Source of the DNA: an uncultured delta proteobacterium
GTDB lineage: Bacteria; Desulfobacterota; RBG-13-43-22
DNA length: 64,000 bases
Direction of reading: 5' to 3'
NCBI GenBank assembly: GCA_963711835.1
Contig: CAVQFQ010000004.1
Location: 416,001-480,000, forward strand
In this document: positions 8,786 through 39,909 of the stretch, in pieces
Layout of the letters: every line of letters starts with the position of its first letter
How positions within the stretch are numbered: position 1 is the first letter of the stretch
Program-made: the position numbers and the translations under genes
Notes under the pieces: generated by a model
What the model saw: only the letters and a program-made list of their open reading frames with translations
What the model was told of the DNA's origin: nothing
The model's database searches: none

Positions 8786-9088
8786 GGTAACGTTCAACAG
8801 TTATGGCAATGGCGTATTATTGCCTGACTGGGGGACCGGGGGTCTCGATTTCAAGGTTGTCCGAAAGGGTATCCGCAGCCCCCAACCCGGCCCGAATTTC
8901 TAAGTTGGTTGGGAGCCGGGCATTCACCTAAGACGATAAATCGCTTTGGTGTTGGCCTGTTTCTAAATCCACTTATAACTTCCTGCCCGGGGTCAGGGTG
9001 CCGGCGTTTTGGCGGACAATCCTTGAAATCGAAACCCCCGATCCCTTTGGGTATCAGAAATAGTATGCCTCAACTTTTGAACGTTACT
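8786..9088 (-). mobile_element. MITE-like element, end type A, shared hairpin core
   Basis: TIRs GGTAACGTTCAACAGTT / AACTTTTGAACGTTACT; flanks TGTCTTTT / TTTCTTTT (7/8); core homologous to the 26.0, 39.0 and 39.6 kb copies. Confidence 0.85.
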
Positions 9089-9094
9089 TTTCTT

Positions 9095-9367
9095 TTAGTT
9101 CTTCTCTTTAAACTCCCGCACCATGGGCCCCAGGATATCCTTGGCCATCTCGGACAGCTCGTCGGCTTTGAGGAGAAACAGGCAGCAGACCTTGCCGTCT
9201 TTCTCCCAGCTCATCACCGCCAGCTTGTCGCCGGGTCGGATCTGGGCTTTTTCCCGGATCTCTTTGGGCAGGACCATCTGGCCCCGGTCATCGACACTGA
9301 CCAGGGATTCCATCCGGTAGCGGCCGGCCGTAGGGCTGCAACAGGGCTCCTTGCTTTTTCCAGCCAC
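9095..9367 (-). CDS. AbrB-fold protein of the HgcAB-associated (HgcC-like) type
   Basis: SVDDRGQMVLPKEIR...GDKL AbrB/SpoVT signature plus two CC pairs; GGAGG RBS and GTG start. Confidence 0.75.
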   Translation of the reverse strand: MAGKSKEPCCSPTAGRYRMESLVSVDDRGQMVLPKEIREKAQIRPGDKLAVMSWEKDGKVCCLFLLKADELSEMAKDILGPMVREFKEKN

Positions 9368-9404
9368 CGTATCACCTCCACTCTTTTATCAGAAAAATAT
9401 AATT

Positions 9405-9422
9405 AATCAGATTATTCTGATT
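9405..9422. promoter_or_regulatory. Palindromic operator upstream of the HgcC-like/arsM unit
   Basis: AATCAGA-TTAT-TCTGATT; minus-strand TTGACA at 9459-9454. Confidence 0.5.
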
Positions 9423-9592
9423 TATCTGTATATGTAAAACAGAGAAGAGGGTTTGTCAATAGGTTTTTACTTAAGTGTCTCCACCCGGAAATCACAGATT
9501 TTCGGATAAGCACAAATTAAATCTTTTCTTTTTTTTAGGAGTATTATAGGAATTAAAGTTGTCTCCAAAGAATCCCCCTGGGAGGAAAGATT

Positions 9593-10933
9593 ATGCCGTC
9601 ACCCCAATTGCCTCCTTACGACCATCAGCCGAAACCTTATTCCGGTCCATCCCCGGAAGAGGTCTTGGCCCTCCGGAAGCAGGTTCTCAACCCAGGGCTG
9701 CTCACCTATTATCAGCAGCCGCTCATGATCGTCGAAGGATCCATGCAGTATGTTTATGATGAAAAGGGGCGCCGTTATCTGGATGCCTTTGCCGGGGTGG
9801 TCTCCATCAGCGTCGGCCATGGCCATCCTTATGTTCTACAGAAGGCCCGGGAGCAACTCGAACTCCTGCCTTACTTGCCCACTCTTTATCTGCACCCCCG
9901 GATATCCGAATATGGCCGGATGCTGGCCGAAAAGATGCCCGGGGATTTGAAGGTCTGCCACTTTGTCAATTCCGGATCGGAAGCCAACGAGTTGGCTTTG
10001 CTGATGGCCCGCCTTTACACCGGCAACTACGAGATTATCGCCTTGCGTAATGCCTACCACGGCAACAGCGCCTCGACCATGGGGCTGACGGCCCACAGCA
10101 CCTGGAAATATAACACACCCCATAGCTTTGGAGTCCATCACGCCCAGGCGCCCTACCCCTACCGGGGCCTCTGGGGCCAAGAAGATCCCGAGGCCGGGGC
10201 CAATTATGCCGCGGACATCAAGAGCCTGATCGACTATGCCACCCCGGGCCGGGTGGCGGGCTTTTTTGCCGAGTCTATTCAAGGCGTCGGCGGGGCCGTG
10301 GTTTATCCCGACGGCTACCTGGAACGAGCCTATGCCCATGTCCGCCAGGCTGGGGGGCTGTGTATTGCTGATGAGGTTCAAACCGGTTTCGGGCGCACCG
10401 GGACCCATTTCTGGGGATTTGAAACCCAAGGGGTCCTGCCGGATATCGTCACCATGGCTAAAGGCATCGGCAACGGCATCCCTTTGGCCGCGGTCGTTAC
10501 CAGGCCGGAAATCGCCCGGGTTCTGGCCGAGCGGATCCACTTCAATACCTTCGGGGGAAACCCGTTCTGCTGCGCCATAGGGAAAGCCGTCCTGGAAGTG
10601 ATCGAGCGGGAAGGTCTTCAGCGAAACTGCCTGGAACAGGGTGACTATCTGTTGGATGGCTTAAAAAAACTGGCCTCCAGGCACAGCCTGATCGGGGAGG
10701 TGCGCGGTAAAGGATTAATGATCGGGGTGGAGCTGGTACGGGATTTAAAGACCAAAGAACCGGCCTCGGAGGCATGTGCCCGGGTCTTTGAGAGGGTTAA
10801 GGAATTGGGGGTGCTGATTGGAAAAGGAGGCTTCTTCGGGAATGTCCTTCGTATCAAGCCCCCCATGTGCCTGACTCGGCCGGATGTGGATTTTCTGATT
10901 GAAGTTCTGGATCTGGCCCTGAAGGAAGTTTAG
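9593..10933 (+). CDS. Class III PLP aminotransferase (alanine-glyoxylate aminotransferase 2-like)
   Basis: [32 protein letters not shown] and NTFGGNP. Confidence 0.9.
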
Positions 10934-10968
10934 GCCAGATCCTCACAAGTTATAATCGGCGACGTGTT

Positions 10969-11304
10969 TTAGTACCTCCGGCCGCCTCCTCCGCCGCCGC
11001 TTCGACCGCCCCCGCCGCTGCGGCCGCCACCGAAGCCTCTTCCCCCTCCCGATTCTTTTCGGGGTTTGGCTTCGTTGACAATCAGTTTTTTGCCGTAAAG
11101 TTCTCCATTGTTGAACGATTTAATGACCTCGGCCGCTTCCTCCTCCGTATCCATTTCCACAAAACCGAAACCCCGGGAAAGGCCGGTATAGCGATCCCGG
11201 ACGATCTGGACCGAAACCACCTTTCCGAGTTGCTCGAAATTATGACGCAGATCATCTTCGGTTGCTTCCTGGGCCAAATTGCCGATGTAAATTTTTTTCT
11301 CCAT
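10969..11304 (-). CDS. RRM RNA-binding protein with Gly-rich tail
   Basis: RNP2 IYIGNL and RNP1 RGFGFVEM. Confidence 0.95.
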   Translation of the reverse strand: MEKKIYIGNLAQEATEDDLRHNFEQLGKVVSVQIVRDRYTGLSRGFGFVEMDTEEEAAEVIKSFNNGELYGKKLIVNEAKPRKESGGGRGFGGGRSGGGGRSGGGGGGRRY

Positions 11305-11537
11305 GCTGGGTCTCCTCCTTCAGATAAGGGTTACTGCCTAAAAAAATAACCCGCCTTGATTTTAGTAGTCCCGGCGGGTTATTCTCAACGGTTTGAACTT
11401 ACTAAAATTATTTGTCTTGAGTGGGTGTCCTGAACTCAAACATCACATTCGATTAGGCGTATTATAATCGAAAAGCACCCTTTGGTCAAGGAAAAAGGTG
11501 GGATCCTTTCCGACGCTGAAATTCACTATCCGAAAAG

Positions 11538-11638
11538 AAAATTATCCCCCTATCGGCCAAGACCGTGCCCGGCAGTTTCCGGGCGGTCGAGGGTCCTGGG
11601 ATGCTTTCACCGTCTTGTCGGCCGATAAGAATAATTTT
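11538..11638. repeat. About 100 bp element with imperfect 27-bp terminal inverted repeats
   Basis: AAAATTATCCCCCTATCGGCCAAGACCG versus CGTCTTGTCGGCCGATAAGAATAATTTT. Confidence 0.55.
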
Positions 11639-11956
11639 TCATATCGGAGGGGCGATGGTCACCAGAAGCCTGAGGTCGGTATCGGCGGCCAGCCCATGGG
11701 GTTCGCTGATGTCGCAGACCAAAACGTCCCCTTTCCGGGCCGGTATCTCGCTGTTGTCTTTGCCCAAAAACTTTCCTGAGCCTTCCAGGACCACCAGGCA
11801 CACCTGTCCCTCGATGTCGTGGGCGTGGACCGGTAAAAGCTGTCCGGCCTTAAAGTTGAAATTGAGGATTTTGAAGTAAGGTGAGTCATGGACCAAAAGC
11901 CTCTTGAAGGACAGGTCGGCGAAATCATTGGCTTCATAGAGATTGACCTTTTTCAT
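11639..11956 (-). CDS. Small cupin domain protein
   Basis: PVHAH...VLEGSG...PHG cupin motifs; GGAGG RBS. Confidence 0.85.
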   Translation of the reverse strand: MKKVNLYEANDFADLSFKRLLVHDSPYFKILNFNFKAGQLLPVHAHDIEGQVCLVVLEGSGKFLGKDNSEIPARKGDVLVCDISEPHGLAADTDLRLLVTIAPPI

Positions 11957-12158
11957 CTTTCCTCCTTTTTCATTCTCTTAACCTTTTTCCCCCTTAAATA
12001 TAAAGTTTTTCTTCCCTTACATCCATATTAAAATGACTAGGATGCCGGTATTATGGTCAAACAAACTGGCATCTAAGTTATGCTAACCAATTAATTATTA
12101 TATTAAATTAAGATTATCCCTTCTCACTTTCGGAAGGTAATGTAATTCTGAAAATTTT

Positions 12159-13706
12159 TTAATCGGTGATAACTAAGGGAAGATATATCTTATGACTTGA
12201 ATTATTAGCTGTCTTAAAAATCCCAGTAATATAGAGGTCTCTGTTCATGGTCAGGGTGCAGGAAGGATTGGTTCCGCTGCAGGCGTCCCTAACCACCCGG
12301 CAAATTCCGATCCGGAATTGGGTGTAGCCGTCAGGGTCACAACCGTCCCGGCACTAAATCTGTCTCCGGGAGGGTTCTTTACTATGGTACCGCGCCCCGA
12401 ACCAACTTTGAAAACTTGGAGAGAATAATTGATATTGGTGAGAGTTAAGAAGGAAGCGTTGATGTTGTGGTTAGCTGTGACGTTACTGAAGGTATAACTT
12501 GTCACCGCCCCAACCGAGGTCCCATCCGCGGTAACAGCGGCCACCCGATAGCCCGCGGCCGGGGTAATAGTGAAGGTTCGGCTGGCGCCATAATTGACCG
12601 TGGTGGTGCCGGCAGGGGAGATAGAGCCGTTGGCCCCGGCCGTTGCCGTGATCGTATAGGCCTTTAGATTGAAACCGGCTGTTTTCGTGGTATTGCTGTT
12701 CATGGTCACGGTGCAGGTGAGGCTGGACCCGCACCCCCCGGACCAGCCGCTAAAAACCGAACTGGCGTCGGCTGTCGCCGTCAGAGTCACCAACGTTCCT
12801 GGGTTGAAAGAAGATCCTGTCGGACTGTTGGTGACAGAGCCGGTTCCAGTCCCATTTTTCAAAACCGTCAACGTATAGGTAGTGCCAATAGCAAAAGTCG
12901 CGGAAATCGTATGATTAGCCGTAACATTACTGAAGGTGTAACTTGTCACCGCCCCTACCGAGGTCCCATCTACGGTAACCGCGGCCACCCGATAGCCCGC
13001 GGCCGGGGTAATAGTAAAGGTTCGGCTGGCGCCATGAATTGACCGTGGTAGTGCCGGCAGGGGAGATAGAGCCGTTGGCCCCGGCCGTGGCCGTGATCGT
13101 ATAGGTCTTTAGGTTGAAAGCGGCTGTTATCCGTGGTATTGCTGTTCATGGTCACGGTGCAGGTGGGGCTGGTCCCGCTGCAGCCCCCGGACCAGCCGCT
13201 AAAAACCGAACTGGCATCGGCTGTCGCCGTCAGGGTCACCGCACGCCCCCAATGCATAGGCCTCGGAACAGTCTGTCCCGCAACCAATGCCTGTTGCTGA
13301 AACGGTCCCGGTCCCATTCCCCTGCTTGGTCACCGTCAGGGTCAGCTGTTTGAACCGATGAAGAATAGCTTACCTCGTTGGAATAGCCGCTGCTCGCGCC
13401 TTGGGTATTTTCGGCAGTCAAGGCAAAGTAGTAAGTTGTTCCAGCATTCAAGTTAGTGAGGGTATAAATGAGGTTCAAACCCACATCGATATGTTGCGAG
13501 TAGGTCATGGATGCTGTTCCGTAATGAAGCCTATATCTTGCCAAATTTGATTCGGTATTGGGGTCCCAGGCCAGGGTGACCTGGGCCGAAAAACTGATTG
13601 ATGGAAGAATAAAGAGGAAGAATAAGACCAGGGTGGGAAGACAAAACCTTGAGAGGAGGGATAGGAATCCCTTCACCCGGTTTCTTTGGGAATCTATAAA
13701 AGCCAT
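12159..13706 (-). pseudogene. Exported FN3 + divergent InlB B-repeat surface protein, split by several frameshifts (possibly sequencing errors)
   Basis: Signal peptide, VTLAWDPN...YYFALTA FN3 domain, tandem VTLTATAD...FSGWSGGC and YTITATAGANGSISP repeats over 4 frames; final frame ends KIYLPLVITD* at 12159. Confidence 0.75.
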
Positions 13707-13809
13707 TTTATATATCCATCACTTTAACCTTTATTAGGATTAGCGAATTACTGAGTGACTTCCTCAAATGGATTTATTATTTTCTTGGTTGATTAACTAA
13801 AAAACCCGA

Positions 13810-13825
13810 TGCATTTTTTGTTCCA
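13810..13825 (-). promoter_or_regulatory. Putative sigma54 -24/-12 promoter
   Basis: TGGAACAAAAAATGCA (GG-N10-GC) about 100 bp upstream of the FN3 gene. Confidence 0.45.
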
Positions 13826-14100
13826 CCAGCCTTTCATTGTTAAATACGATTAAATATCGTCTGCTTATCTTTTAGGAAGAAAACTTCAAATCCACTTTGA
13901 TGCAGGAAAATCCAGACGAAATTATTTTAAAAGGGGAACGAATTAAGCGGTTAGATTTGGGCTGGTTTTTAACTTACTATTATAAAAGCGTTTTTTCGCG
14001 GCTGCCAAATGAAGGGTTTCCCACACACCCCACTTGGAATAATTTGACGGAAGAGGAAGTGACATTATTGCCCTGTTAGAGTCGGGGACAAACCAATTTG

Positions 14101-14428
14101 GCATATCGGAGGGGCGATGGTCACCAGAAGCCTGAGGTCGGTATCGGCTGCCAGACCATGGGTTCGCTGATGTCGCAGACCGGAACGTCACGTTTCCGGG
14201 CCGGCATCTCGCTGTTGTCTACCTAAAAACTTTCCGGAGCCTTCCAGGACCGACCAGGCAGTTTACCGTGTCCCTCGACTGTCGTGGGCAGTGGACCGGC
14301 GGGATAATGCTGGCTCCGGCCTTGAAGTTGAAATTCAGGATCTTGAGGTCAGGCGAATCGTGGACCAAGAGCCTCTTGAAGGACAGGTCGGCGAAATCAT
14401 CGGCTTCATAAAGATTGACCTTTTTCAT
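14101..14428 (-). pseudogene. Second, frameshifted copy of the cupin gene
   Basis: Near-identical to 11639-11956, with synonymous substitutions, many 1-bp indels and a lost stop. Confidence 0.8.
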
Positions 14429-14688
14429 TTTTCCTCCTTTGCGGGCGTTTCCTGAAATCCCTTCGCCGGCCGTCAGGGTTTATCCGGAAACCTTCCCCGA
14501 CCCTATCCGGCAGCTTCTCCGTCCATTCTTTCGGAATGTATAAATGAATTTCGCTTTTTTTATTTTGACAACCATAGCATAGGTGTCGTATTTTTTTTAA
14601 TATAAAAATACTGGTTCATTAAACGCTTTCCCCTGGCTGGCACCAAACGCCGATTTCAGTCTTTCGTCCACGACGATAAGCGGTCACC

Positions 14689-15309
14689 ATGGACCTATCC
14701 ACCTTGCTCTATTTTCTCGGCGCATCGATCGCCCTTACCTTAGCTCCCGGTCCTGACAACCTCTTTGTCATTACGCAGGGAATTACCCGGGGAAGGAAGC
14801 CGGCCATCATTACCGCCATTGGGATGTGCAGCGGGATCAGTATCCATACCACGGCAGCGGCTTTCGGAATCTCGGCGGTATTCTATTCCTCGGCCGTTGC
14901 CTTCAAGGCCGTCAAGTACGCCGGAGCAGCCTACCTGCTGATCCTGGCCTATAAAACGCTGAAGCAACGCTCCGCCATAAAACTCGCGATCGCTGATGAT
15001 CGGACTGCTGTCGCCTTGTTTAAGCGGGGATTTATTATGAATGTCCTCAATCCGAAGGTGGCCATGTTCTTTCTGGCTTTTCTGCCGCAGTTCGTGACCT
15101 CCCAGACCCGCTATTTCCCCCTCCAGCTGCTGCTGCTGGGATTCATCTTCATGGTGCAGGGCGTAATCATTTTTTCTCTGATCGGCTATTTCTCGGGCAG
15201 TATCGGCAAGTTCATCCTGGCCCGGCCAAAGATCGCGAAGGTTTGTGACTGGTTGACAGCCGGGATCCTGGCTTCCTTAGGCGTCAAATTGGCCCTGGCT
15301 GAACGATGA
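14689..15309 (+). CDS. LysE/RhtB family exporter
   Basis: APGPDN, GAAYL and NVLNPKVAMFFLAFLPQF. Confidence 0.9.
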   Translation: MDLSTLLYFLGASIALTLAPGPDNLFVITQGITRGRKPAIITAIGMCSGISIHTTAAAFGISAVFYSSAVAFKAVKYAGAAYLLILAYKTLKQRSAIKLAIADDRTAVALFKRGFIMNVLNPKVAMFFLAFLPQFVTSQTRYFPLQLLLLGFIFMVQGVIIFSLIGYFSGSIGKFILARPKIAKVCDWLTAGILASLGVKLALAER

Positions 15310-15458
15310 TCCTGGATCAGGGAACCCGGATGCTGCACCGGTCCGAACATGTTCCCTCTTAAATTTTTATTGATCCAAGATAAAATTCGGTTGACACTTT
15401 TTTAAAATTTATATAACATCTTAATAATTCAATGAAATTTAAAGGACGGGAAGAAGCT

Positions 15459-15857
15459 ATGGAAGTTAAGGATGTTAAGGCCTTGTTTACCGATGAAACG
15501 CTCAAAATGATTTTTCCAGCTCAAAAGGCGGACCAGTTTTTTGAGGCCTTATATGGGGATGTGGAGGAAGGGGCTTATGACATCAGGTTGAAGTTTAAAG
15601 ACCATGATCCGGCTCGAAAGAATCTCACTTTTTTAATTGAACTTATTGAAAGAAAAGGGAAATGTCTTGTTTGCAACCTGACTTACGGCCTGCCGGAAGT
15701 CTTTTCGCGGCACCCTGTTATTAATATAAATGGGATCGTCAGGGAGATTGAAAAGCTGTTAGGAAAGACGGCCGAAGGGAGCCGTTGGTCTTTGGGGAAG
15801 ACCCTGCCGGTTTCCAATACGCTTCATGCCATCCCCCTGATTATCTCCCTTAAATGA
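15459..15857 (+). CDS. Conserved hypothetical protein with CxxC
   Basis: FFEALYGD...GKCLVCNLTYGLPEVFSRHP, a motif I recall from sulfate-reducer proteins; TTGACA/TATAAC promoter upstream. Confidence 0.7.
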   Translation: MEVKDVKALFTDETLKMIFPAQKADQFFEALYGDVEEGAYDIRLKFKDHDPARKNLTFLIELIERKGKCLVCNLTYGLPEVFSRHPVININGIVREIEKLLGKTAEGSRWSLGKTLPVSNTLHAIPLIISLK

Positions 15858-16648: not shown

Positions 16649-16651
16649 ATC

Positions 16652-24680: not shown

Positions 24681-25133
24681 ATGGACTTTCAGCTCGGCAA
24701 AAGTTATGATGAAATACAGATAGGGGATAAGGCCTCCTTTTCCAAGACCATTACCGAAACCGATGTCTACCTCTTTGCCGGCATCAGCGGGGATTTCAAT
24801 CCCATGCACGTCAATGAGGAATTCGCCAAGCTGACGCCTTTCAAGACCCGGATTGCCCATGGGGCCTTGCCCCAAAGCCTGATCGCACCGGTCTTGGGTA
24901 CCAGACTCCCGGGTCTGGGAACCGTGGCCGTAGAAATAACCACCCGTTTTAGAAAACCGACTTTTTTCGGAGATACGGTCACGGCCACGGCCGAAGTGAT
25001 TGAAAAGATCGAGATTAAAAAAAGGGTCCGGATGAAACTGACCTGGACCAATCAGCGCCGGGAACTTATCGGCGACGGGGAAGCCTTGGTCATCCCCCCG
25101 CCGAAGATGGAAGAGTTAATAACCGCCTTATAA
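24681..25133 (+). CDS. MaoC-type (R)-specific enoyl-CoA hydratase
   Basis: SGDFNPMH...RIAHG; GGAG RBS before the ATG at 24681. Confidence 0.9.
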   Translation: MDFQLGKSYDEIQIGDKASFSKTITETDVYLFAGISGDFNPMHVNEEFAKLTPFKTRIAHGALPQSLIAPVLGTRLPGLGTVAVEITTRFRKPTFFGDTVTATAEVIEKIEIKKRVRMKLTWTNQRRELIGDGEALVIPPPKMEELITAL

Positions 25134-25360
25134 TGGTATCTAACCGATGGGGCCGCTTTTTCTTCCGTCTGTGGCTTTCGGGCTGGTCTTTTTTCCGGAC
25201 TTATCCAGGGGGTATCCCTTACCCCTTCCGCATTCTCGCCCGCTAAAAATCAGCGGTCGAGTCCCGCTGTAGCGGGATTTCCCCATGGGTAAGTCCGGAA
25301 AAGACGGCGCCCTTTCGCCAATGACTCCAGAATAAACAGCCCAACCGGTTTGGGTAACGT
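25133..25360. mobile_element. Second hairpin-forming dispersed repeat (family C), copy 1
   Basis: 25157-25244 recurs at 63914-64000; internal stem 25181-25207 / 25286-25311; degenerate terminal repeats. Confidence 0.65.
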
Positions 25361-25760: not shown

Positions 25761-25856
25761 TAACTAACCTGGAAGCTGACTGGAGTTAATCCAACGGGGG
25801 GATGGTGCCTCAAAGGACATTCCTGCTTCCCTGCCTATCGGTTTATTAGGTTACCT

Positions 25857-25885
25857 GTAGGGGCGGGCTTCAGGCCCGCCCCTGC
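25857..25885. repeat. GTAG-type REP-like hairpin
   Basis: GTAG followed by GGGCGGGC-TTCAG-GCCCGCCC. Confidence 0.6.
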
Positions 25886-25941
25886 GATCCGACCGGGGCC
25901 AGTCGGGCTGGGGAAGAAACAGGCTAAATGCTTTAATCTTT

Positions 25942-26273
25942 GGGATAGTCCCAAAGTTACGTGATTATCAAACTGAAGGGGTAGCCTCTTAAGATAGTAA
26001 ATCACCCCAAAGAGCTTCAGGGGTCTTGATTTCAAGGATCGTCCGCCAAAACGCCGGCAGCTTGAACCCGAGCAGGAAGTTTATAAGTGGCGTTAGAAAC
26101 AGGCCAACACCAAAGCGAGTTATCATCTTGGGTGAATGCCCGGCTCCTAGCCAACTTAGAAATTAGGGCCGGGTTGGGGCTATGGACATCCTTTCGGACG
26201 ACCTTGAAATCAAGACCCCTGAAGCTCTCGACGAATGGATAGCTTAAAAATCACGTAACCTTGGGACAAACTC
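25942..26273 (+). mobile_element. MITE-like element, end type B, shared hairpin core
   Basis: 25-bp TIRs GGGATAGTCCCAAAGTTACGTGATT / AATCACGTAACCTTGGGACAAACTC (21/25); perfect 8-bp duplication TAATCTTT. Confidence 0.9.
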
Positions 26274-26297
26274 TAATCTTTAAATGGTAAGGGTGCT

Positions 26298-31211: not shown

Positions 31212-31219
31212 ATAAACAG

Positions 31220-31348: not shown

Positions 31349-33145
31349 ATGATGGAAACCATCTCCACGGTATTCCTCAGGCAGGTCATGAAATACCAAA
31401 CCCGTCCTGCTTTGATGGTTAAAAAGGAAGGGACCTATCAGCCCCTTTCCTGGCAGGATTGGTATGAACAGGTGGCCTCATTCGGCCTGGGACTTCATGA
31501 CTTGGAGATCGGCCCCGGAGATGCCGTGGCCATCCTCTGCAACAACCGCCCCGAGTGGATGACCGCCGATCTGGCCATCTTAGGTCTGGGGGCTATGACC
31601 ATTCCCATCTATGCCACCAACACCGCTGATCAGGCGGCCTTTATCCTTCAAGACGCCCGATGCAAGGCTGTCATTGTAGAAAACCCCGATCAGTGGCAAA
31701 AAATTGCCCTGGTCAAGAACCGACTGACTGATTTGAACACGGTCATCCAAATGGACGGGCTCCCTCATTCCACCTCAAACCGTTTGGCCTTTTTCGATGT
31801 TCTGGCCAAAGGCCTGGGCCTGCTGAAAACGGATCCGGGCCTTTTCCCCAGGCTTTCTTCTCAGGCTCTCCCGGAAGATATCTGTACCATTGTCTATACT
31901 TCAGGAACCACCGGGCCTCCCAAAGGGGCCATGCTCAGCCATGATAATATCCTCTCCGTAATCCGGATGCTCGGCCGGGTTGTTCCGGCCACCGACCGGG
32001 ACAGCTACGTATCCTTTCTGCCTCTCTCCCATGTCTTTGAAAGGATCGGAGGCTTTTTCAACGGCATCTATGTCGGGGTAACCATTTTCCTTGCCGAAAG
32101 CATGGATACCCTGGCCCGGAATATCCAGGAGGCTAAGCCCACCATTCTCATGACCGTCCCTCGACTGCTGGAAAAGGTCTATGCCACGATTCAGAATCGC
32201 GTCAAGGAGGAGTCCTCCACCAAGCAGGCAATTTTTAACTGGTCCCAAAAAATAGGCCGGGAAAAGGGTCGCCGGCAGATGTTGAATCAAGCCGTGCCCT
32301 TCAGCCTGCGCTGGAAACATGCCCTGGCCTATCAACTGGTTTTTAGAAAATTGAAACAGGCTTTAGGTGGAAGGATTCGGTTCCTGGTTTCCGCCGGTGC
32401 CCCCATCTCCCAAGAAATCGTCGAGTTTTTCAGCGCCGCTGGTCTTTACGTTATGGAAGGGTACGGGGCCACGGAAACCTCGGCTCCGGTCTCGGTCAAT
32501 GTCCTGGATGATTATCGTTTCGGAACAGTCGGCAAACCGCTGCCCGGGGTGGAAATTCGGATTGATCCCCTAAACGGCGAGATCCTGGTTAAGGGCGGGA
32601 ATATCTTTAAGGGTTACACCAACCTCCCGGGAGGAAACGGCCCGGTCCTTCACCGAAGACGGGTTTTTCCGCACCGGCGATGTAGGGCACCTGGATAAAG
32701 ACGGGTTTCTGGTTATTACCGACCGCATTAAAGATTTGATCATTACCTCCGGCGGCAAAAATGTAGCCCCCCAGAATATCGAGAACCTTTTCAAAGGCGA
32801 TCCCCTTTTCAGCCAGGTGGTCATTATCGGGGAACGGCGGAAATTCTGGCCGCCCTTCTCAACCTTGATCCGGATGAGGTCTCGCGAAAGGGACGGGCCC
32901 TTGGCCTGATAGATCCGGACTTAAATGCTCTGATGGACGACCCGCGTATCCTGGACTGGGTTCGGGATAAGGTACGGGAGAAAAATAAGCGCCTGGCCCG
33001 ATATGAACAGGTAAAAGAATTCCGGATCCTCAAAACCCCCTTCAGCCAGGAGGGCGGCGAACTGACCCCGACCCTGAAACTCCGCCGCAAGGTGATCATG
33101 GAGAAATACAGGGAACTCATCGAATCCATGTATCCTCCTGATTAG
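31349..33145 (+). pseudogene. Long-chain acyl-CoA ligase (AMP-binding), frameshifted near 32630 and 32850 (likely sequencing errors)
   Basis: YTSGTTGPPKG and EGYGATE; continuation RTGDVG...ITDRIKDLIITSGGKN and ELTPTLKLRR in other frames. Confidence 0.85.
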
Positions 33146-33153
33146 GAAATCAA

Positions 33154-33726
33154 TTACGACATCCGGAAAGGGGCTTGCCCTTGACAGGCCAGGCAGATCG
33201 GCCCGTCAGCCGCCGGGTACGATTCCCGACATTGGGCACAGACGGCAAAGGCCCCCCGGCGGCGGACGGCGATAAAATCCGCATCAAGCTTTACGGGGCG
33301 AAAACTGCACAGCGTTGATCCCGCTTCCAAAATCTGTTCATTGAGCGATTGGAGGTTTTGTTGGGCCTTGGGTTTCAGTTTGAAAAACCAGTCCTTGATC
33401 TCCGGCCAGGCTTCCAGCTTAAGAGGATCAACGAATACCCGCACCCCTTCTCCGCCTGGTTTTCGGTAAAGAATCAGGGCATATCGGCCCAGATTCAGGA
33501 CCCGGAGCCAGCCGTTTCCCACCGTGCAGGGCGTCAATAACTGAATGGCATCGGGAAGACACTTGGGGGTCTCGCTCAGGGCGTCATAGAACTCCCCGGG
33601 AGGCAGATGCTTCAGGGCCAGATCCACCATGAAGCCGCCGAGCACCATACCCGGGGCCGGGTGGCCGTGAAAAGCCTCTACCTTTTGAAGGTAATCCTCA
33701 AGAGCGATGGCGCCGACCCTGGTCAT
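33154..33726 (-). CDS. FmdE family protein with C-terminal zinc ribbon
   Basis: FHGHPAPG, CLPDAIQLLTPCTVGNG and CxxC...CxxC; ATGA overlap with the upstream gene. Confidence 0.85.
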   Translation of the reverse strand: MTRVGAIALEDYLQKVEAFHGHPAPGMVLGGFMVDLALKHLPPGEFYDALSETPKCLPDAIQLLTPCTVGNGWLRVLNLGRYALILYRKPGGEGVRVFVDPLKLEAWPEIKDWFFKLKPKAQQNLQSLNEQILEAGSTLCSFRPVKLDADFIAVRRRGAFAVCAQCRESYPAADGPICLACQGQAPFRMS

Positions 33727-35966
33727 GGGGCCGCTTCGATCCGGCAGCACACATAGCGGTGCATGGGCGTTCCCGCGATCGGATCCCGGTGCGTATTTTT
33801 AGTCAGCCGGTTCACGTTGATCCCGTAGATCTTCCCCGGATACTCCAACCCGAACCCATGGGGGATGATAACCGTTCCCGGCCGGGAAGACTCGGCCGTC
33901 TCCAGTTCTATTTCTTCGCTTCCGGCCTCGGTGATGACCCGGACCTTCTGGCCGTCCTTAAAACCCAGCCTGGCGGCATCCCCCGGGTGCATGGCCAGGG
34001 TACAGGCCCGCCGTTCTTTGTTCCAGGCCGGATCACGCATCAAGGTGTTGGCGTTCATATCCATGTGCCGGCCGGCCATCAGGATAAAGGGAAAGTCCTG
34101 GTTTCCTCCCTCCAGGGAGGCCGCCTCGGATTGGGGCTCGATGGATTGAACCCATTCGGCCATTTCGGGGATGTGGATATGGATCCGTTTATCCTCCGTG
34201 GATAGGGCTTCCAGATTATTTTCAGTATCCGATCGTCCGATCCAGAGCCCTTCGGGATGATCCAGTATGGCCTGAAAAATCTGCTCCCCCATAAGAGGTC
34301 CGGGGGTGAACCCGGCCCGGGCGGCGTTCTCCTGAAAACCCTTCGGGGTTGTCTGGAGCAGACCCCAGAGGGCCGCCAGGTTGGCCGATCCCATTTCCTT
34401 CCCTAAGGTTTTGGCCAGGACAAAAGGCATGGCCTTCATGGCCTCTGGGTGTTCCTGGATAAATTGCATCAGGGCCAAACCGTATCCCAGCCGGTCTCCT
34501 TTGACGGCTTCGCGAAGGTTTGGGGGAATCTCGGGGATTAATCCCAGTCGATCAGCCAGAAGAACCATGATCTGGCCTACCTCCAGACGCTCCCCTTCAG
34601 GAGTCAGGACGGGCCGCCGCATCTGGAAATAGATCTCCGGATAGTTCCACGCAAAGAAGGTGCCGTCCCAGGATTCATAGCCGGATCGGGCCGGCAGGAC
34701 ATAATGAGAAAGGACTGCGGTCTCGGTCATGGCCAGTTCGCAGGTCACCAGCAGATCCAGGCTGCGGAAAGCCTGCTCATAGGCGGTGGTATCCGCATAG
34801 GAGCGAAGCGGATTGGATCCGGAGCATAAGACAGCCCGGAGTCTTTCCGGGTGGTCGCTCATGATCTCTTCGGGCATGACATTGGGAGGAAAGGTACCCA
34901 TGATAGCCGGGAAATCGGTGGCTACGGTTCGCCAGGTCCGGGGATCCCGTTCATCGGAATGGGAGCCGATGGGCATGAGATGACCGGGGATGACATTCCC
35001 CCCCGGGACGCCGATGCGCCCGCAAATCGCCAGGAGAATGACGGCCAGGTAAGTGGTGGCCGTGCTGTGCCGATTCATATAAACCCCCAGATCCGGGTGC
35101 AGGGCTGATTTGCGACCGGCAACCAATTGACAGACCCGGCGGACTTGGTCATAGTTCAGTTCGCAGACCTTCACGGCTGCCCGGGCATCAAAGCCCGAAA
35201 ACCAGGGCAGCACCTCTTCGAACCCCTTTACCTGTTGCGACAAATAATCCGCGTCCTGCCACCCTTCCTGAAGGATGATGGCGATCATGGCCCGGGTAAG
35301 CAGGGCATCGGTCCCCGGTTTTATCGGCAGGTGAATATCCGCAATAGCCGCCGTCTCCGTGCGTCTGGGATCAATAACCACCAAGACCTTATCCGGGTCT
35401 TTGGCGAATTTCGTCAGAAAACGACGGGCCTGGGGCATCTGATGACTCATCATGCCGTTCCAGCCGACAGCCAGGAGGACCTCGGTGTTGTCGTGATCGG
35501 GGATGCCGAAGAGGTATTGGCGCCCCACGGCCCGGCCCCAGGCCCAGAAATTGCCGGTCAGTTCCTGGGCCAGGGCGCTGTAGTGATAGTGTGAGCCCAG
35601 GCCGCGCAGCAGCCGGACCCCGAAGGCCGCTTCAAAGTGACAACCCTGGCCCCCGCCTCCCATGTAGGCCAAGGACCGAGGACCATGGGCCGACACGATC
35701 GCCCGAAGCTTCTCGGCGATTTCAGCCAGGGCCTGCTCCCAGGAAATGCGCTCAAAATTACCTCCCACTCGCTTCAGCGGATGATCGAGCCGCTGGGCAT
35801 GATGCTGATGGAAGGCTATGTTGAGGCCTTTGCGGCAGACATAGCCTTGGCTGCGGGGGTTGTCCTGGTCCGGCCGCACCTTGACCAGGCGGTTTTCTTG
35901 AACCTGAACCTCGAGGCCGCAGTTCTGAGCGCAGAGCACACAGGAGGTTTTATGCCACTCCATCAT
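33723..35966 (-). CDS. Molybdopterin (bis-MGD) oxidoreductase with N-terminal 4Fe-4S
   Basis: CVLCAQNC...CRKG, IDPRRTETA, IKPGTD and MTETA; molydop-binding C-terminus; no Tat signal seen. Confidence 0.9.
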   Translation of the reverse strand: MMEWHKTSCVLCAQNCGLEVQVQENRLVKVRPDQDNPRSQGYVCRKGLNIAFHQHHAQRLDHPLKRVGGNFERISWEQALAEIAEKLRAIVSAHGPRSLAYMGGGGQGCHFEAAFGVRLLRGLGSHYHYSALAQELTGNFWAWGRAVGRQYLFGIPDHDNTEVLLAVGWNGMMSHQMPQARRFLTKFAKDPDKVLVVIDPRRTETAAIADIHLPIKPGTDALLTRAMIAIILQEGWQDADYLSQQVKGFEEVLPWFSGFDARAAVKVCELNYDQVRRVCQLVAGRKSALHPDLGVYMNRHSTATTYLAVILLAICGRIGVPGGNVIPGHLMPIGSHSDERDPRTWRTVATDFPAIMGTFPPNVMPEEIMSDHPERLRAVLCSGSNPLRSYADTTAYEQAFRSLDLLVTCELAMTETAVLSHYVLPARSGYESWDGTFFAWNYPEIYFQMRRPVLTPEGERLEVGQIMVLLADRLGLIPEIPPNLREAVKGDRLGYGLALMQFIQEHPEAMKAMPFVLAKTLGKEMGSANLAALWGLLQTTPKGFQENAARAGFTPGPLMGEQIFQAILDHPEGLWIGRSDTENNLEALSTEDKRIHIHIPEMAEWVQSIEPQSEAASLEGGNQDFPFILMAGRHMDMNANTLMRDPAWNKERRACTLAMHPGDAARLGFKDGQKVRVITEAGSEEIELETAESSRPGTVIIPHGFGLEYPGKIYGINVNRLTKNTHRDPIAGTPMHRYVCCRIEAAP

Positions 35967-35994
35967 TGATCCTCTCTTTCCGGGCAAACCCGTC

Positions 35995-36060
35995 GGTATC
36001 GTTCAAAAGGTTGGGCTTTATCTTTTTGATAGCCGATGAAAGGGGACCGGGGGTCCCCTT
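35995..36060 (+). mobile_element. Solo left end of a type A element, no core
   Basis: GGTATCGTTCAAAAGGTT...AAGGGGACCGG matches 38953-39008; no right end seen. Confidence 0.55.
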
Positions 36061-36189
36061 GTCCTTTTCGGAACCCAATGAAAAAAGTATAGGACAGGGA
36101 AGTAACGAGGGTCAAGGAGAAAACAGGGAAAGGAGAGATCTCCTGTCTAAGAAGAGATTAATGCTAAGCGGGCAAGGCGGCTGTTCAGA

Positions 36190-36321
36190 TTAATTCCAGT
36201 AATAGACCAGTCTTCGGATGAGCTGATGTCTTTCCTTGACCGGGAGATCCCAATAGAGAGCACTCTCCATCAGGATAGTGACAATTTCTTCAATAATTTT
36301 TTCTACGGTAAGTTGTTTCAT
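36190..36321 (-). CDS. 43-aa small protein absent from the ORF track
   Basis: MKQLTVEKIIEEIVTILMESALYWDLPVKERHQLIRRLVYYWN*; amphipathic helices; sigma54-like promoter upstream. Confidence 0.6.
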   Translation of the reverse strand: MKQLTVEKIIEEIVTILMESALYWDLPVKERHQLIRRLVYYWN

Positions 36322-36375
36322 AGACCCCATCCCCATGACTAAAAGTTTGAAGGAAATGTTTATGAACCATAATTA

Positions 36376-36391
36376 TGCAAATAGCGTTCCT
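36376..36391 (-). promoter_or_regulatory. Putative sigma54 promoter
   Basis: AGGAACGCTATTTGCA (GG-N10-GC with TTGC). Confidence 0.6.
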
Positions 36392-36537
36392 CCCGCCTGC
36401 ATTTTCAAAAAGAGGGCCGTCGTCGTAAAAACTTGCTGATAATATTAGAGATTTCAATTTGAGGAAACTTCGGGGCTAAAAAGGGCCACAAATAACCGCC
36501 CGGAAGGTGGGAAAAACTTTCTCCTTATTTTCCCTTT

Positions 36538-36582
36538 GGTTGCTTAGACAGTCTGTTTTGAGAATTTATCCCTAACGTTCAA
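36538..36582. repeat. 45-bp box, copy 1 (possible activator-binding site)
   Basis: 37/45 identical to 39458-39502. Confidence 0.65.
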
Positions 36583-38897
36583 TCCTTCTCTTCTAAGACC
36601 TCTTTGACAAAGACAGCCACCAAATCCGGATCAAATTGTGATCCCGCGTGGCCTTCAAGCTCTGCTTTGGCTTCTTCGGGACTGAGGGCCTTGCGATAGG
36701 GCCGGTCGTTCATCATGACATCAAAGGCATCCAGGATAAAAACCATCCTGGCGACCAAGGGGATTTCCTCACCCTTTAAGCCTCTGGGGTATCCTCTCCC
36801 ATCCCACCGTTCATGGGCCGACCAGATCGCTTCGGCAACCGAGGCAATCTCCGGGGTGGCCCTGGCGATGCGGTATCCTGTTTCAGGGTGCTTCTTTATG
36901 ATCTTAAATTCTTGATCGGTCAGGGGGCCGTTTTTATTCAAAATATCATCCGGGATAACGACCTTCCCAATATCGTGGAGTTCCGTGGCCAGGACCACCT
37001 TCTTGGATTCCTCCTCGGACAACCCGACTTTTTCAGCAAACTTTTGGGCCAGGCTCTGCATACGCCCCATGTGTTCTTCGGTGCCGTGGTCCTTTTCAAC
37101 CATGGTGGCCTTGAGGACCGTTAGGATTGATTTTCGGACATCTTCCCGTTTGGGGATCTTTTCCCGAAGAAGCCGCCTGTCCGCTTCCTTGAAGGATTCG
37201 AGCAATGTTTTTGAGAAATCATCCCGGGCATCACCACCCATCGAAACACTGATCGGATGCTTTCCTTTCGGCAATCCATTATTATACGAAAGGAGGCTGT
37301 TTTTAAAACGCAGGACAGCGGCTTCTATCTTGGTTTGGTCGATATTCTTTAAAATTACGGCGAACTCGTCGCCGCCGATCCGGGCGATCACATCGGAAGG
37401 GCGAAAGCTCTTCTTCAGCAGGCCGGCCACCTCTTTTAATAGACGATCCCCTTCCGGGTGCCCGAAGGTATCATTGACGAATTTCAGGCCGTCGATATCG
37501 AGCAACAGGATGCCGACTTTCATCTCCCGCTCATTGGAAAGAAGCCTCATTTCTTCTTCGAAAAAGTTGCGGTTATAGAGACCGGTTAGAGGATCATGGG
37601 TGGCGGCCTGTTTGAGCTGCTCTTCCGCCTGTCGCCTTTCGGTGATATCCCGGAGTATGACCGTCAAGAATTTTTCATTTCCGGTCCGGTAGGAAGCCGC
37701 GGAGATTTCAATAGGGAATTCGGTTCCGTCCTTTTTAAGGCCCAGGGTCTGGATGGTAATCTCGGCTCCCGGTTCGGGATCTTCCATCAGCAGCCGATTA
37801 AATTCATTTTGATAATAATGGTGGTCGTCACTTTCCTTGATCAGGAGGGTAACCGATTCGCCGATCACTTCCTGGTCGGTATAGCCGAAAATGACCTCGC
37901 CAGCCGGGCTCCAGGTTAAAATGGTTCCTTGGCCGTCCAGGGTAAAGATGGCTTCACTGGCCGTCTCGATCAAGGACCGGAACCGTTCCTCGCTGTCGAG
38001 CAGGGCGCTTTCGAACCGTTTTCTTTCTTCGATTTCCTGCTGCATCAATTCGTTGGCGCGGGTTAATTGAGAGGTTCGCCCATCGACCTGGTTTTGATAC
38101 TGCTTGAGTTGTACCAGCATGGTATTAAAGGCCTGAGCCAAGTCAGAGATCTCATCATTGGACTTGATGGAGATATAACCGTCAAATTTCCGGTCGGCAA
38201 TTTCTTCAGCGGCCTTCTGTAAACGCTGGGCCGGAGAGGTTATCCTCTTGGTCAAAAAGAAGGTTAACCCCACCCCGACTAAAACCAGCAGAACGGTAAT
38301 CAAGGCGGTATTCAGGATAAAATGGGAGATCCGGGTATTGATCTTCTCCTGGCCCAGCCCTAAATAAACAAACCCAAGCAGTTGGGGTTGCTTTTTGGAA
38401 TTTCGCGGGTCGTCAATGGAGAATTCAGGCAGGATGACCCCCTCTGAACTTTTCCAGACCGGTGCCCGGACTTCGAAATATTCCTTGCCGTCGCTCTCAT
38501 TAATAAATTCGCCAAACGCGGTTTGCTCCGGTGGTGAGGCCCTGAATCGGCTACCTTCCTTTAATAAGGCCACACTGGGATTAAACAGGATTTCGGTCAG
38601 AATGGTATCTGCCGCGCTTTTAATACGGACATAGACAATGTCCGAGTTCAGGGCCAGCCCCTTAACAATCTGCGACAGGGAGGCCTTATTGCCCTGAAGG
38701 ATTCCCGGCTCACAGGTCTTGGCGGTCATCTCCGCCAGCACCAGGCCGTGATCCAAAAGCTCCTGGCGGACATTTTTCATCTCGGCCTTGACAACAAAAT
38801 AGGATAGACCGACGGCCGTCATCAAAATGGAGAAAATAGTCAGTAAATTGAATTTGGTGGCCAGGCTAAGCCGGATTTTTTTTCGGTTTTTTTTCAT
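36579..38897 (-). CDS. Membrane HAMP-PAS-GGDEF-HD-GYP c-di-GMP enzyme
   Basis: 2 TM segments, HAMP, PAS (DGTEFPIE), RPSD I-site plus GGDEF, LHDIGK and HERWDGRGYP. Confidence 0.92.
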   Translation of the reverse strand: MKKNRKKIRLSLATKFNLLTIFSILMTAVGLSYFVVKAEMKNVRQELLDHGLVLAEMTAKTCEPGILQGNKASLSQIVKGLALNSDIVYVRIKSAADTILTEILFNPSVALLKEGSRFRASPPEQTAFGEFINESDGKEYFEVRAPVWKSSEGVILPEFSIDDPRNSKKQPQLLGFVYLGLGQEKINTRISHFILNTALITVLLVLVGVGLTFFLTKRITSPAQRLQKAAEEIADRKFDGYISIKSNDEISDLAQAFNTMLVQLKQYQNQVDGRTSQLTRANELMQQEIEERKRFESALLDSEERFRSLIETASEAIFTLDGQGTILTWSPAGEVIFGYTDQEVIGESVTLLIKESDDHHYYQNEFNRLLMEDPEPGAEITIQTLGLKKDGTEFPIEISAASYRTGNEKFLTVILRDITERRQAEEQLKQAATHDPLTGLYNRNFFEEEMRLLSNEREMKVGILLLDIDGLKFVNDTFGHPEGDRLLKEVAGLLKKSFRPSDVIARIGGDEFAVILKNIDQTKIEAAVLRFKNSLLSYNNGLPKGKHPISVSMGGDARDDFSKTLLESFKEADRRLLREKIPKREDVRKSILTVLKATMVEKDHGTEEHMGRMQSLAQKFAEKVGLSEEESKKVVLATELHDIGKVVIPDDILNKNGPLTDQEFKIIKKHPETGYRIARATPEIASVAEAIWSAHERWDGRGYPRGLKGEEIPLVARMVFILDAFDVMMNDRPYRKALSPEEAKAELEGHAGSQFDPDLVAVFVKEVLEEKD

Positions 38898-38952
38898 GTC
38901 ACTTGAGAAACAACCCCTTCCGAAATACCCTCTGGCAGGGCGGTAATTTTTT

Positions 38953-39260
38953 GGTATCGTTCAAAAGTTGTGGCATTATATTTCTGATACCGGAGGGAAG
39001 GGGACCGGTGGTCTTGATTTCAAGGTTGTCCACCATAAACTCCTCACTTTGAAACCGGGCTGGAAGGGTGACGATAATGCCTTAAGCAGGCCTTCACCAA
39101 AGCTGTTTGTCCGGTTGGGTGAATGCCCGGCTCTAAACCAACCTTAGAAATCTGGGCCGGATTGGCGGGAAAGATCCCCCTTTGGACAAGCCTTGAAATC
39201 AAGACCACCGGTCCCCAGTCAGGCCATAATGCGCCAATGCCAAAACTTTTGAACGATACT
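38953..39260 (+). mobile_element. MITE-like element, end type A, diverged core
   Basis: TIRs GGTATCGTTCAAAAGTT / AACTTTTGAACGATACT; perfect 8-bp duplication AATTTTTT. Confidence 0.88.
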
Positions 39261-39305
39261 AATTTTTTAGAGAGCTCCAACACTATAAAACCCCCCAAAA
39301 TTATT

Positions 39306-39321
39306 TGCAAATTCTATTCCC
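39306..39321 (-). promoter_or_regulatory. Putative sigma54 promoter
   Basis: GGGAATAGAATTTGCA (GG-N10-GC with TTGC). Confidence 0.5.
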
Positions 39322-39457
39322 GGGATTTAGGTGCCTTGGGGCGGAAAAGCGATTTAAATAACCTATCAAAATAATTAATTAAAACGACTTAGAAGCCTGG
39401 ACTGAAAAATTGGAGGCGCCTTGACCGGCCCAACTATGGTCTAAAACTTCATTTTTT

Positions 39458-39502
39458 AGTTGTTTAGACAGCCTGTTTAGAAAATCTATCTCTAACTTTC
39501 AA
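39458..39502. repeat. 45-bp box, copy 2
   Basis: 37/45 identical to 36538-36582. Confidence 0.65.
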
Positions 39503-39518
39503 GGATAGAAAAAGATAT

Positions 39519-39909
39519 GGAATAGCCAAAGGTTCCGTGATTCTCAACCCGAAGGGGTAGCCTCTTAAAAAATTACATCACCACAAAGGGCTTCGGGGAT
39601 CTTGATTTCAAGGATCGTCTGCCAAAACGCCAGCAGTCTGACCCCGGCAAGTAGTTTATAAGTGGTTTTGAAACAGGCCAACACCAGAGCGATTTACCAT
39701 CTTGGATGAATTCCCGGATCCCAACCAACTTAGTCCGCCGCGGCGGACGGGCCGGGTTCTTCGCATCCAAAACAATGCTCAGTCCCACTCCTGCGGAGTG
39801 GATCCCAGTTTGGGGCTATGGATACCCTTTCGGACAATCTTGAAATCAAGACCCCCGAAGCCCTCGACGAATGGATGGCCTAAAAATCACCTGACCTTGG
39901 GACAAACTC
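39519..39909 (+). mobile_element. MITE-like element, end type B, with two internal insertions
   Basis: Colinear with 25942-26273; flanks AAAGATAT / AAAAATTT (6/8). Confidence 0.85.

Follow-up and report, generated by a model that had tools for sequence, protein, structure and literature searches.

Several families of short intergenic repeats, such as the Correia elements (CREE) of Neisseria and ERIC, occur in multiple copies, carry terminal repeats, and have a strong predicted fold, as do the elements described here. Inversion and RNase III cleavage are among the properties reported for Correia elements (PMC10969869). The present elements differ from Correia and ERIC in that the long stem lies internal to the transposon ends, the same hairpin (the "passenger") is common to at least five types of transposon shell, and the arm sequence varies by subfamily while its self-complementarity is kept. 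Template-switched inverted repeats also have matched arms, extended stems, and inverted spacers, as observed here, and arm homogenization and spacer inversion are among the outcomes described for template switching (PMC8604942, PMC8794818). In the yeast study within these reports, spacers of up to 70 nt were screened, and the inverted ones were a few bases long (PMC8604942, PMC8794818), whereas the spacer here is far longer (i.e., 150 bp) and we infer the mechanism from sequence alone.

TIRtrons (TIRYT) are described as TnpA-REP subclass 2.1 Y1 HUH genes located between terminal inverted repeats (PMC3733652, PMC6006769). They are abundant in the genome and family studied here. Like our arms, their repeats are G-rich, of similar length, alike within an element, and different between elements. 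Unlike them, the arms read GGGGTCTT and do not match the motif GGGG[AT][CG]A[CG], their matrix scores lie at or near background, and no core was found beside a gene of this type; the matrix comparison gave no support to a TIRtron/TIRYT origin of the arms. Among loci L043 to L098, a sample of the genes of the family, no TIRYT gene was located between passenger-type arms.

A hairpin carried by gene-less transposons

The window is the whole 64,000-nucleotide stretch that was analyzed, derived from an uncultured delta proteobacterium, and the copies and remnants found in it are listed in Table 1. The passenger consists of a 33-bp arm, a core of ~150 bp, and a second arm, i.e., a hairpin of ~215 bases within a MITE shell. 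The genome contains 115 near-complete copies, of which 31 are in shells A and A' and 44 are labeled B, and the elements in the window range from 303 to 391 bp. The carriers are small transposons without genes. The initial annotation correctly recognized the closing stem of a "cassette" but overlooked that a transposon shell flanked by target-site duplications encloses this stem as its inner part. The passenger is shared by shells A, A', B, E, F, and G, and the arm sequences differ by shell. Two of the 115 copies have unclassified flanks; in relatives, nearly all of the 52 parsed passengers (60 fetched) had a shell end. No match to the core was found in plasmid records, phage records, or viral contigs.

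TABLE 1 Features of the hairpin-bearing elements in the window
Feature	Position	Strand	Remark
MITE copy 1	8786..9088	-	ISH6-type shell A and hairpin passenger
Copy 1 target duplication	8778-8785 and 9089-9096		8 bp, 1 mismatch
Copy 1 arm, 3' in core sense	8832..8863	-	
Copy 1 core	8864..9012	-	149 bp
Copy 1 arm, 5' in core sense	9013..9045	-	Extra base; 2 mismatches with partner
Arm pairs, stem at 8.8 kb			TCGATTTC/GAAATCGA and TTGTCCG/CGGACAA
MITE copy 2	25942..26273	+	Shell B and passenger
Copy 2 target duplication	25934-25941 and 26274-26281		8 bp, perfect
Copy 2 left arm	26011..26045	+	1-nt bulge flanked on both sides by symmetric changes
Copy 2 core	26046..26194	+	149 bp; conserved mirror-placed motifs
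Copy 2 right arm	26195..26228	+	
Arm pairs, stem at 26 kb			GAGCTTCAGG/CCTGAAGCTC and TCGTCCG/CGGACGA
Shell A, truncated	35995..36059	+	Left end and collapsed small hairpin, no core
MITE copy 3	38953..39260	+	ISH6-type shell A, second core subtype
Copy 3 target duplication	38945-38952 and 39261-39268		8 bp, perfect
Copy 3 left arm	39000..39032	+	
Copy 3 core	39033..39182	+	150 bp
Copy 3 right arm	39183..39216	+	Extra base
Arm pairs, stem at 39.0 kb			CCGGTGG/CCACCGG and TTGTCCA/TGGACAA
Degenerate F-type shell ends around copy 4	39460..39935	+	About 39460-39500 and 39910-39935, by eye against F ends
MITE copy 4	39519..39909	+	Decayed shell B and passenger; 8-bp flanks with 2 differing positions, by eye
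Copy 4 passenger	39587..39864	+	Arms about 39587-39621 and 39832-39864; 3 mismatches and a gap
Arm pair, stem at 39.6 kb			GGGCTTCGGG/CCCGAAGCCC

Copy 4 is a MITE nested inside an F-type MITE, and its core is ~60 bp longer, with small palindromes inserted. At the locus of copy 2, a related population has 149 bp in place of 501 bp: one contig lacks copy 2 and joins position 25787 to position 26289 via 149 other letters, which is not a clean empty site. For shells A and B, an 8-bp duplication with at most one mismatch was detected in 47 of the 66 copies with both ends located (shuffles: mean, 2.1; maximum, 9); nine further A/B copies had no locatable end.

The elements are non-coding, with no conserved reading frame seen and 1-nt indels in the cores; a coding origin of the core was rejected, since reading frames that are open in one subfamily are interrupted in others (by eye). 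Two kinds of larger element were also rejected. A 2.5-kb copy (C10:53481-55975) considered as a master element contains an unrelated two-gene IS inserted into the core (helix-turn-helix and DDE_Tnp_1, with its own 15-bp ends and 7-bp duplication), and the 2.4-kb stretches between paired B ends on contigs C17 and C27 contain ordinary genes lying between neighboring copies.

Shell A starts with GGTA-CGT, as does ISDesp5 (rows of Table S1 of PMC3942029), an ISH6-family insertion sequence (p-MULT 2, Mutator superfamily) from uncultured Desulfobacterium. The first 17 bp of shell A are shared with 1.47- to 1.65-kb elements encoding a ~465-aa protein that scores 460 bits on NF041731 (cutoff, 240); one such autonomous element (L123; 1,651 bp; 460 bits) has a perfect 8-bp duplication. 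The A/B duplications are AT-rich (A at position 2 in 43 of 47; T at position 7 in 40 of 47), in agreement with the ISH6 preference AANATNTT. In contrast to the autonomous ISH6 elements, the MITEs described here lack a transposase gene and carry the passenger, which is missing from those elements and from most other MITEs sharing the shell A end. Shell B has the end skeleton and the 8-bp duplication of shell A. We infer that both shells were spread by an ISH6 transposase acting in trans.

With the query used, no ISH6 gene was found in the genome or in 20 relatives. Searches for autonomous partners returned none for shell B, E, F, or G. The genome contains no PF00872 or PF06782 transposase, and three PF06782 matches in relatives were rejected as shell partners because they showed no shell ends by eye. 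The hairpin family, although unusual, is likely to be largely ordinary mobile DNA.

Matched arms and conserved core motifs

All of the arm pairs listed in the initial annotation were found in the sequence, and its observation that arms match better within than between copies applies genome-wide (identity, 0.95 to 0.97 versus 0.82 to 0.95). Its claim that compensation preserves the stem in every copy was overstated. A 1-nt bulge is the sole imperfection of the stems at 26 and 39.0 kb, while uncompensated substitution mismatches occur in the stem at 8.8 kb (two, in addition to the bulge) and in that at 39.6 kb (three, with a gap).

Arm concordance was assessed in 106 copies of shells A, B, E, and F (i.e., excluding four A' copies, two unclassified copies, and three damaged or misfiled rows). 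Events with the same change in both arms numbered 110, versus about 29 by shuffling, and one-armed changes numbered 121. Departures from the consensus in both arms were 27, 18, 7, and 58 for A, B, E, and F, respectively (shuffle means, 7.1, 5.2, 0.8, and 15.9), and none of 2,000 shuffles reached the observed value in any shell. Private to single copies were 20 both-arm substitutions and 40 one-arm changes, whereas independent double hits predict 0.7 to 4.6 private symmetric changes. Of the private symmetric changes, 6 are transitions and 14 are transversions, without the transition excess expected from stepwise compensation through G·U; the contrast with the one-arm private changes (22:18) did not reach significance (p=0.10). 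Target duplications start out identical at insertion; in 62 A/B copies, they now differ at 56 of 496 positions (11.3%), a decay possibly inflated by misplaced ends, and the arms differ at 47 of 1,798 (2.6%). Low arm mismatch alone cannot separate conversion from purifying selection.

In a 43-sequence alignment, two-sided changes occurred at 11 of 19 closing-stem pairs and at 0 of 7 interior pairs. At conserved interior pairs, restoring changes numbered 0 to 2 versus 31 to 32 one-sided changes, and the core-only consensus fold had a structure conservation index of 0.08 to 0.09. Conversion is favored because the covariation lies only in the arms and not in the interior. The initial annotation had reasoned that symmetry confined to the arms would point to DNA conversion and away from a functional RNA, and this is the pattern that we found; conversion between arms, which it had also proposed, thus gained support, while selection on an RNA fold lost it, given this confinement and the lack of a G·U preference.

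The 1-nt bulge lies 6 to 7 bp from the inner end of the stem and is kept in 83 of 92 A, A', B, and E copies and in 32 of 50 copies in relatives; it is missing from 15 of 21 F copies. From genome to genome, the core motifs hardly vary and keep a fixed spacing, and the linkers drift. Four short invariant stems share one center (core position 75.5 to 76).

Inversion and rewriting of the core

Each of the four main shells holds the core in both orientations. The counts of forward and inverted copies are 24/3 (A), 33/11 (B), 14/3 (E), and 9/12 (F), with 4/0 in A'; inversion, seen in a quarter of the copies, had escaped the initial annotation. On a 111-row core tree, the orientation label switches 21 times (9 switches forced by well-supported branches), compared with a shuffle mean of about 26. 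Since orientation is slightly more clustered than chance (3 to 5 of 500 shuffles were as low), some inversions were inherited. In 10 copies with an inverted core of one type, the bulge moved with the core eight times and stayed with the shell twice; therefore, the crossover point varies. Single copies carry templated changes outside the arms: one (C25:34105) has a perfect 44-bp palindrome at the core center, and the central 27 nt are inverted in another (C17:515039). Several copies show a stem extended inward. Of 38 classifiable copies of shell B, 2 have swapped termini and 3 have homogenized termini. At two orthologous loci from other populations, the orientation is unchanged and the arms show three one-arm changes and none that is symmetric, so neither a flip nor a conversion was observed in situ. 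Among the joints listed for contigs on 24.5 to 40.5 kb, where contigs break in repeats, none was a strand change at an arm.

Probable arm-to-arm copying and its alternatives

We consider it probable that, after insertion, the copying of DNA from arm to arm keeps the arms matched and inverts the core, the passenger being a non-coding hairpin in non-autonomous transposons. The element would become single-stranded at the replication fork, allowing its arms to pair; a mutation could then be copied to the partner arm or erased through template switching by the polymerase or through recombination over short tracts. Such events would sometimes invert the core or extend the stem inward, and deletion of the hairpin at short repeats would leave an empty shell; empty shells as preexisting targets are disfavored, as their junctions lie at varied short repeats. 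Passengers probably come to lie in a new shell when MITEs insert into one another and the nested structure is then trimmed; recombination between copies with a common arm sequence is a second probable route. The lack of a G·U bias and of a sense preference is a further point for arm-to-arm copying. Against it, plain long-tract copying should erase the bulge, yet the 26-kb copy is symmetric on both sides of the bulge, and neutral hitchhiking does not explain the invariant core motifs. Inversion of 150 bp may need recombination instead of template switching. The family is a clean natural case of "compensatory" long-stem changes that likely arise without RNA selection and a caution for covariation screens run on repeat families; one genome provides >100 dated copies in which to measure copying between arms, inversion, and loss of the hairpin by deletion.

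Selection of the stem as RNA, co-transcribed with its neighbors and acting as an RNase III substrate or message shield, would parallel the RNase III cleavage of Correia repeats (PMC10969869) and would suit the fold of the whole passenger (-112.1 kcal/mol; z = -9.35), the 49 of 109 stems without a substitution mismatch, and the location of most copies between co-oriented genes. The core alone, however, has a z of -1.50, lacks covariation, and inverts freely (another set of z-scores, computed per core, was set aside because of an unstable shuffle). There is no excess of G·U over A·C among residual arm mismatches on the core strand (48 versus 46) or on the likely transcribed strand (26 versus 20; p=0.46). 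Orientation is two sense and two antisense in the window, as initially annotated, and 38 sense and 37 antisense genome-wide (75 copies between co-oriented genes; crude ORF calls). Gene context (co-oriented/divergent/convergent, 75/24/14) follows the background (855/295/211), with no enrichment downstream of genes. At gathering score, Rfam matched only two tRNAs in the window, and the best match at the 26-kb copy had an E value of 2.1. We regard selection as RNA as improbable. More improbable still is a phase-variable switch (promoter or terminator) in which a site-specific invertase flips the core and homogenizes the arms by strand exchange. The arm size is typical of invertase sites, and both orientations occur in all main shells. 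Inversions have also been reported for Correia elements (PMC10969869). An invertase is nevertheless difficult to reconcile with the absence of a fixed crossover site and with symmetric changes located throughout the arm, at the shell termini, and in the core center. Moreover, the passenger encodes no protein, the 26-kb copy has one promoter-like site (0.5 expected), located in the shell instead of the core, and no terminator, and the contigs of both orthologous loci keep one orientation.

The kept bulge, the invariant mirror-placed motifs, and the presence of one passenger in at least five shells keep alive a role as a folded-DNA substrate, and the single-stranded DNA fold suggested in the initial annotation may still apply. 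The passenger could itself be a mobile unit or mobility signal, whose folded single strand (long stem, extrahelical base, mirror motifs) is read by a dedicated enzyme (e.g., a Y1 HUH transposase or single-stranded DNA recombinase), with pairing instead of sequence being selected and with delivery into MITEs in either orientation; we consider this unlikely. Equally doubtful is the 215-bp hairpin as a hyperparasite, i.e., a folded single-stranded DNA cassette that its own enzyme would recognize by the extrahelical base and the series of mirror motifs. It would colonize MITEs unrelated to one another (ISH6-type, TTAA-targeting, asymmetric-ended, and others), lying in either orientation, and would be amplified by them across a whole bacterial family. 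If the passenger did have its own enzyme, it would represent a new layer of mobile-element parasitism. With a matrix from 25 Y1 repeats, the arms score near background (median, -12.2; repeat self-scores, 6.9 to 23.7), no core was found at any Y1 or IS110 locus scanned, and no passenger in the genome or among those parsed from relatives is clearly shell-less. Cores mix only between shells with a common arm sequence (A with B), as homology-driven exchange predicts, and the private symmetric changes would still require a copying step. In favor of a mobile unit, in addition to the bulge, the four stems on a common center, and the sharing of one core despite different arms, Y1_Tnp matches number 12 in the genome, the majority being long genes flanked by their own terminal inverted repeats, and the arms share with one Y1 repeat group the GGGGTC start and its distance to a TTG-C motif.

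Anatomy and census of the passenger element

The elements have the order end, spacer, arm, ~150-bp core, arm, spacer, and end, and the stem of the passenger (i.e., the gene-less hairpin formed by arms and core) lies 45 to 70 bp inward of a second inverted-repeat pair, which is flanked by an 8-bp direct repeat. The same core is common to several shells, or transposon-end types (A, A', B, E, F, and rarely G). Shells A, A', and B have 17-bp ends and an 8-bp duplication, shell E has TTAA at both ends, and shell F has unlike ends without a terminal repeat. Both ends could be placed in 66 A/B copies, and in 47 of these the duplication carried at most one mismatch (2.1 by shuffling). A profile search matched 152 regions of the genome (118 near complete), and 115 copies were retained after removal of two assembly duplicates and one IS-interrupted copy; these counts still include a duplicate pair recognized later and lack a few short-core F copies that escaped the near-complete filter. 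Near-identical duplicated stretches occur in the bin (C27 versus C17, C1 versus C21, and C24 versus C5), consistent with strain mixing (6.4% contamination). Shells lacking the passenger exist, as collapsed hairpins in this genome and with other cargo in relatives, and no passenger was seen clearly outside a shell among this genome's copies or the parsed copies of relatives.

Cores also receive insertions of their own. An IS with 15-bp ends and a 7-bp duplication (locus L011) lies in a small palindrome within one core; it encodes a helix-turn-helix protein and DDE_Tnp_1, its two genes being probably related by a frameshift, and scores under the cutoff for every NCBIfam IS model listed. Small palindromes of the CCCGC...GCGGG type are inserted in place within cores, and similar inserts recur at a few core positions; one such insert, of 12 nt, is missing from the orthologous locus L194.

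Origin of the matched arms

All four copies and all arm pairs listed in the initial annotation were found in the window sequence, and the observation of matched arms is confirmed. The claim that the closing stem is preserved in every copy was slightly too strong: in pairwise arm alignments, the 26-kb and 39.0-kb stems have no mismatch and one 1-nt bulge each, while the 8.8-kb stem has a bulge and two mismatches and the 39.6-kb stem has a gap and three mismatches.

Among 106 copies (shells A, B, E, and F), the same departure from the consensus occurred in both arms 110 times, versus approximately 29 by shuffling (0 of 2,000 shuffles reached the observed concordance in any shell), and 121 changes were one-armed. 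Since shared ancestry inflates this total, private alleles provide a better test: 20 are shared by the two arms of one copy, compared with an expectation of 0.7 to 4.6 from independent double hits, and 40 are confined to one arm. Shell F, which is more diverse, contributed eight of the 20, and shell E contributed none. Fourteen of the 20 were transversions, a contrast with one-arm changes that is not significant (P = 0.10); one study of template switching reports that transversions were favored in bacterial data (PMC8604942). Target duplications differed at 11.3% of positions and arms at 2.6% in the same 62 copies. Parsing succeeded for 52 of the 60 copies retrieved from relatives, and 30 of these 52 had no arm substitution mismatch despite widely differing arm sequences.

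Two explanations had been offered for this agreement, namely, selection on an RNA or single-stranded DNA fold and conversion between the arms. The RNA reading appears unsupported, with the G·U, strand, gene-context, interior-covariation, and Rfam tests all negative. Residual mismatches comprised 48 G·U-type and 46 A·C-type pairs on the core strand (26 and 20, respectively, on the likely transcribed strand); the core was sense in 38 copies and antisense in 37, and gene context equaled background (both by crude ORF calls). No complementary covariation was found in the core among 38 core representatives (structure conservation index, <0.1), conserved interior pairs had 31 to 32 one-sided and 0 to 2 restoring changes, and the passenger had no Rfam match. 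Two-sided changes were restricted to the closing stem in a 43-row alignment, and DNA-level copying between the arms is the most likely reading, one that we consider fairly probable. Template switching yields homogenized arms, extended stems, and inverted spacers, according to two studies (PMC8604942 and PMC8794818). Of 111 classified copies, 29 carry the core in the opposite orientation with respect to the shell, and all four main shells are represented among them; the core tree, which is short and star-like with bootstrap support not fully settled, contains 21 orientation switches, 9 of them forced by strong branches. The crossover point varies among copies. In one copy the core center is occupied by a perfect 44-bp palindrome and in another the central 27 nt are inverted, and shell termini were swapped or homogenized in 5 of 38 B copies. 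In the same tree, A-shell copies are interspersed among B-shell copies and E cores keep to shell E, a pattern that fits an exchange that would require shared arm sequence. The cassette appears to behave as a MITE in which the arms of an internal inverted repeat are homogenized and its spacer is inverted.

Several features sit less easily with copying between the arms. Close to where the stem ends on its inner side, 83 of 92 A/A'/B/E copies retain a single extra base, as do 32 of 50 copies from relatives; 15 of 21 F copies lack it. We infer that it could be protected by efficient mismatch repair of 1-nt loops, and the genome encodes MutS; alternatively, the extrahelical base might itself be functional. 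Near-invariant core motifs, ~30 to 31 bp apart and mirror-placed about position 76, point to a substrate of folded DNA or to sites bound by protein, and less to neutral cargo. At two orthologous loci from other populations, the orientation was the same and all changes were one-armed; thus, neither inversion nor conversion was caught in place.

Shell relationships, distribution, and neighboring features

The shell A end matched 121 stretches in a metagenome scan, including complete 1.47- to 1.65-kb elements with a ~465-amino-acid gene, none of which carries a core. NF041731, an ISH6 model, gave the protein of one such element (L123) a score of 460 bits, confirming shell A as an ISH6 derivative. 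With the query used, the ISH6 transposase was found neither in this genome, which is 89% complete, nor in 20 relatives, and searches for autonomous partners of shells B, E, F, and G found none. F-type shells at L223 to L236, L237, L243, L248, and L251 (84 to 400 bp; varied cargo; this family and two others) have unlike hairpin-like ends cut adjoining TTAG; by anatomy, their mobilizer may be HUH- or IS110-like. Y1 genes are present in every genome of the family (21 of 21). This genome has seven intact Y1 HUH genes of the TIRYT type, each flanked by inverted repeats of its own (25 to 35 bp), with the left repeat ending at a TTGACA-like hexamer in several. A link of the arms to the TIRYT genes was not supported: the arms scored near background on the TIRYT-repeat matrix, and no core adjoins a TIRYT gene among the loci scanned. 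Nesting of one MITE in another, followed by trimming, is a plausible route by which the passenger may have changed shells, because copy 4 (a B element) lies inside F-type ends and the short repeats at a hairpin's base serve as sites of its deletion.

A full F-type element query matched 21 of 21 genomes of the class; the match was limited to the shell end in 5 genomes (genera g2 and g3), which indicates that the core is restricted to part of the family. The core pattern occurred in 26 stretches of the genome collection; four uncultured records labeled Deltaproteobacteria or Pseudomonadota, such as RBG_13_43_22, account for 21. The passenger appears to belong to none of the families tested. No description of it was found in the literature searched, where most subscription papers fell outside reach, and the accessible text of a MITE review (PMC10969869) contains none of the terms nested, cargo, passenger, and ISH6.

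Locations of features in the window and on other contigs (C) of this genome
Feature	Location	Remarks
Duplicate passenger pair	C1:259; C21:25634	
Two-gene IS (L011)	C10:53481-55975	
Core with palindrome insert (ortholog, L194)	C21:188086	
Intact TIRYT-type genes	C12:141793; C17:498780; C17:165498; C8:125762; C5:298416; C10:57915; C17:331913	
MutS gene	Window 47033-49654	
REP-like palindrome	Window 25857-25886	Starts GTAG; just upstream of copy 2; single genome match at threshold used
Solitary F-type shell end	Window ~36538-36580	Overlaps 3' end of PAS-GGDEF-HD gene
Separate ~170-bp repeat	Window 25127-25300; 63883-64000	11 genome matches
Probable decayed surface-protein locus	Window 11565-14440	Contains three ~450-bp internal repeats; its short frames encode InlB B-repeat and fibronectin III domains
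Block duplicated within that locus	Window 11633-11968; 14095-14440	

An E shell at L364 carries cargo that, judged by eye, is similar to the ~170-bp repeat.
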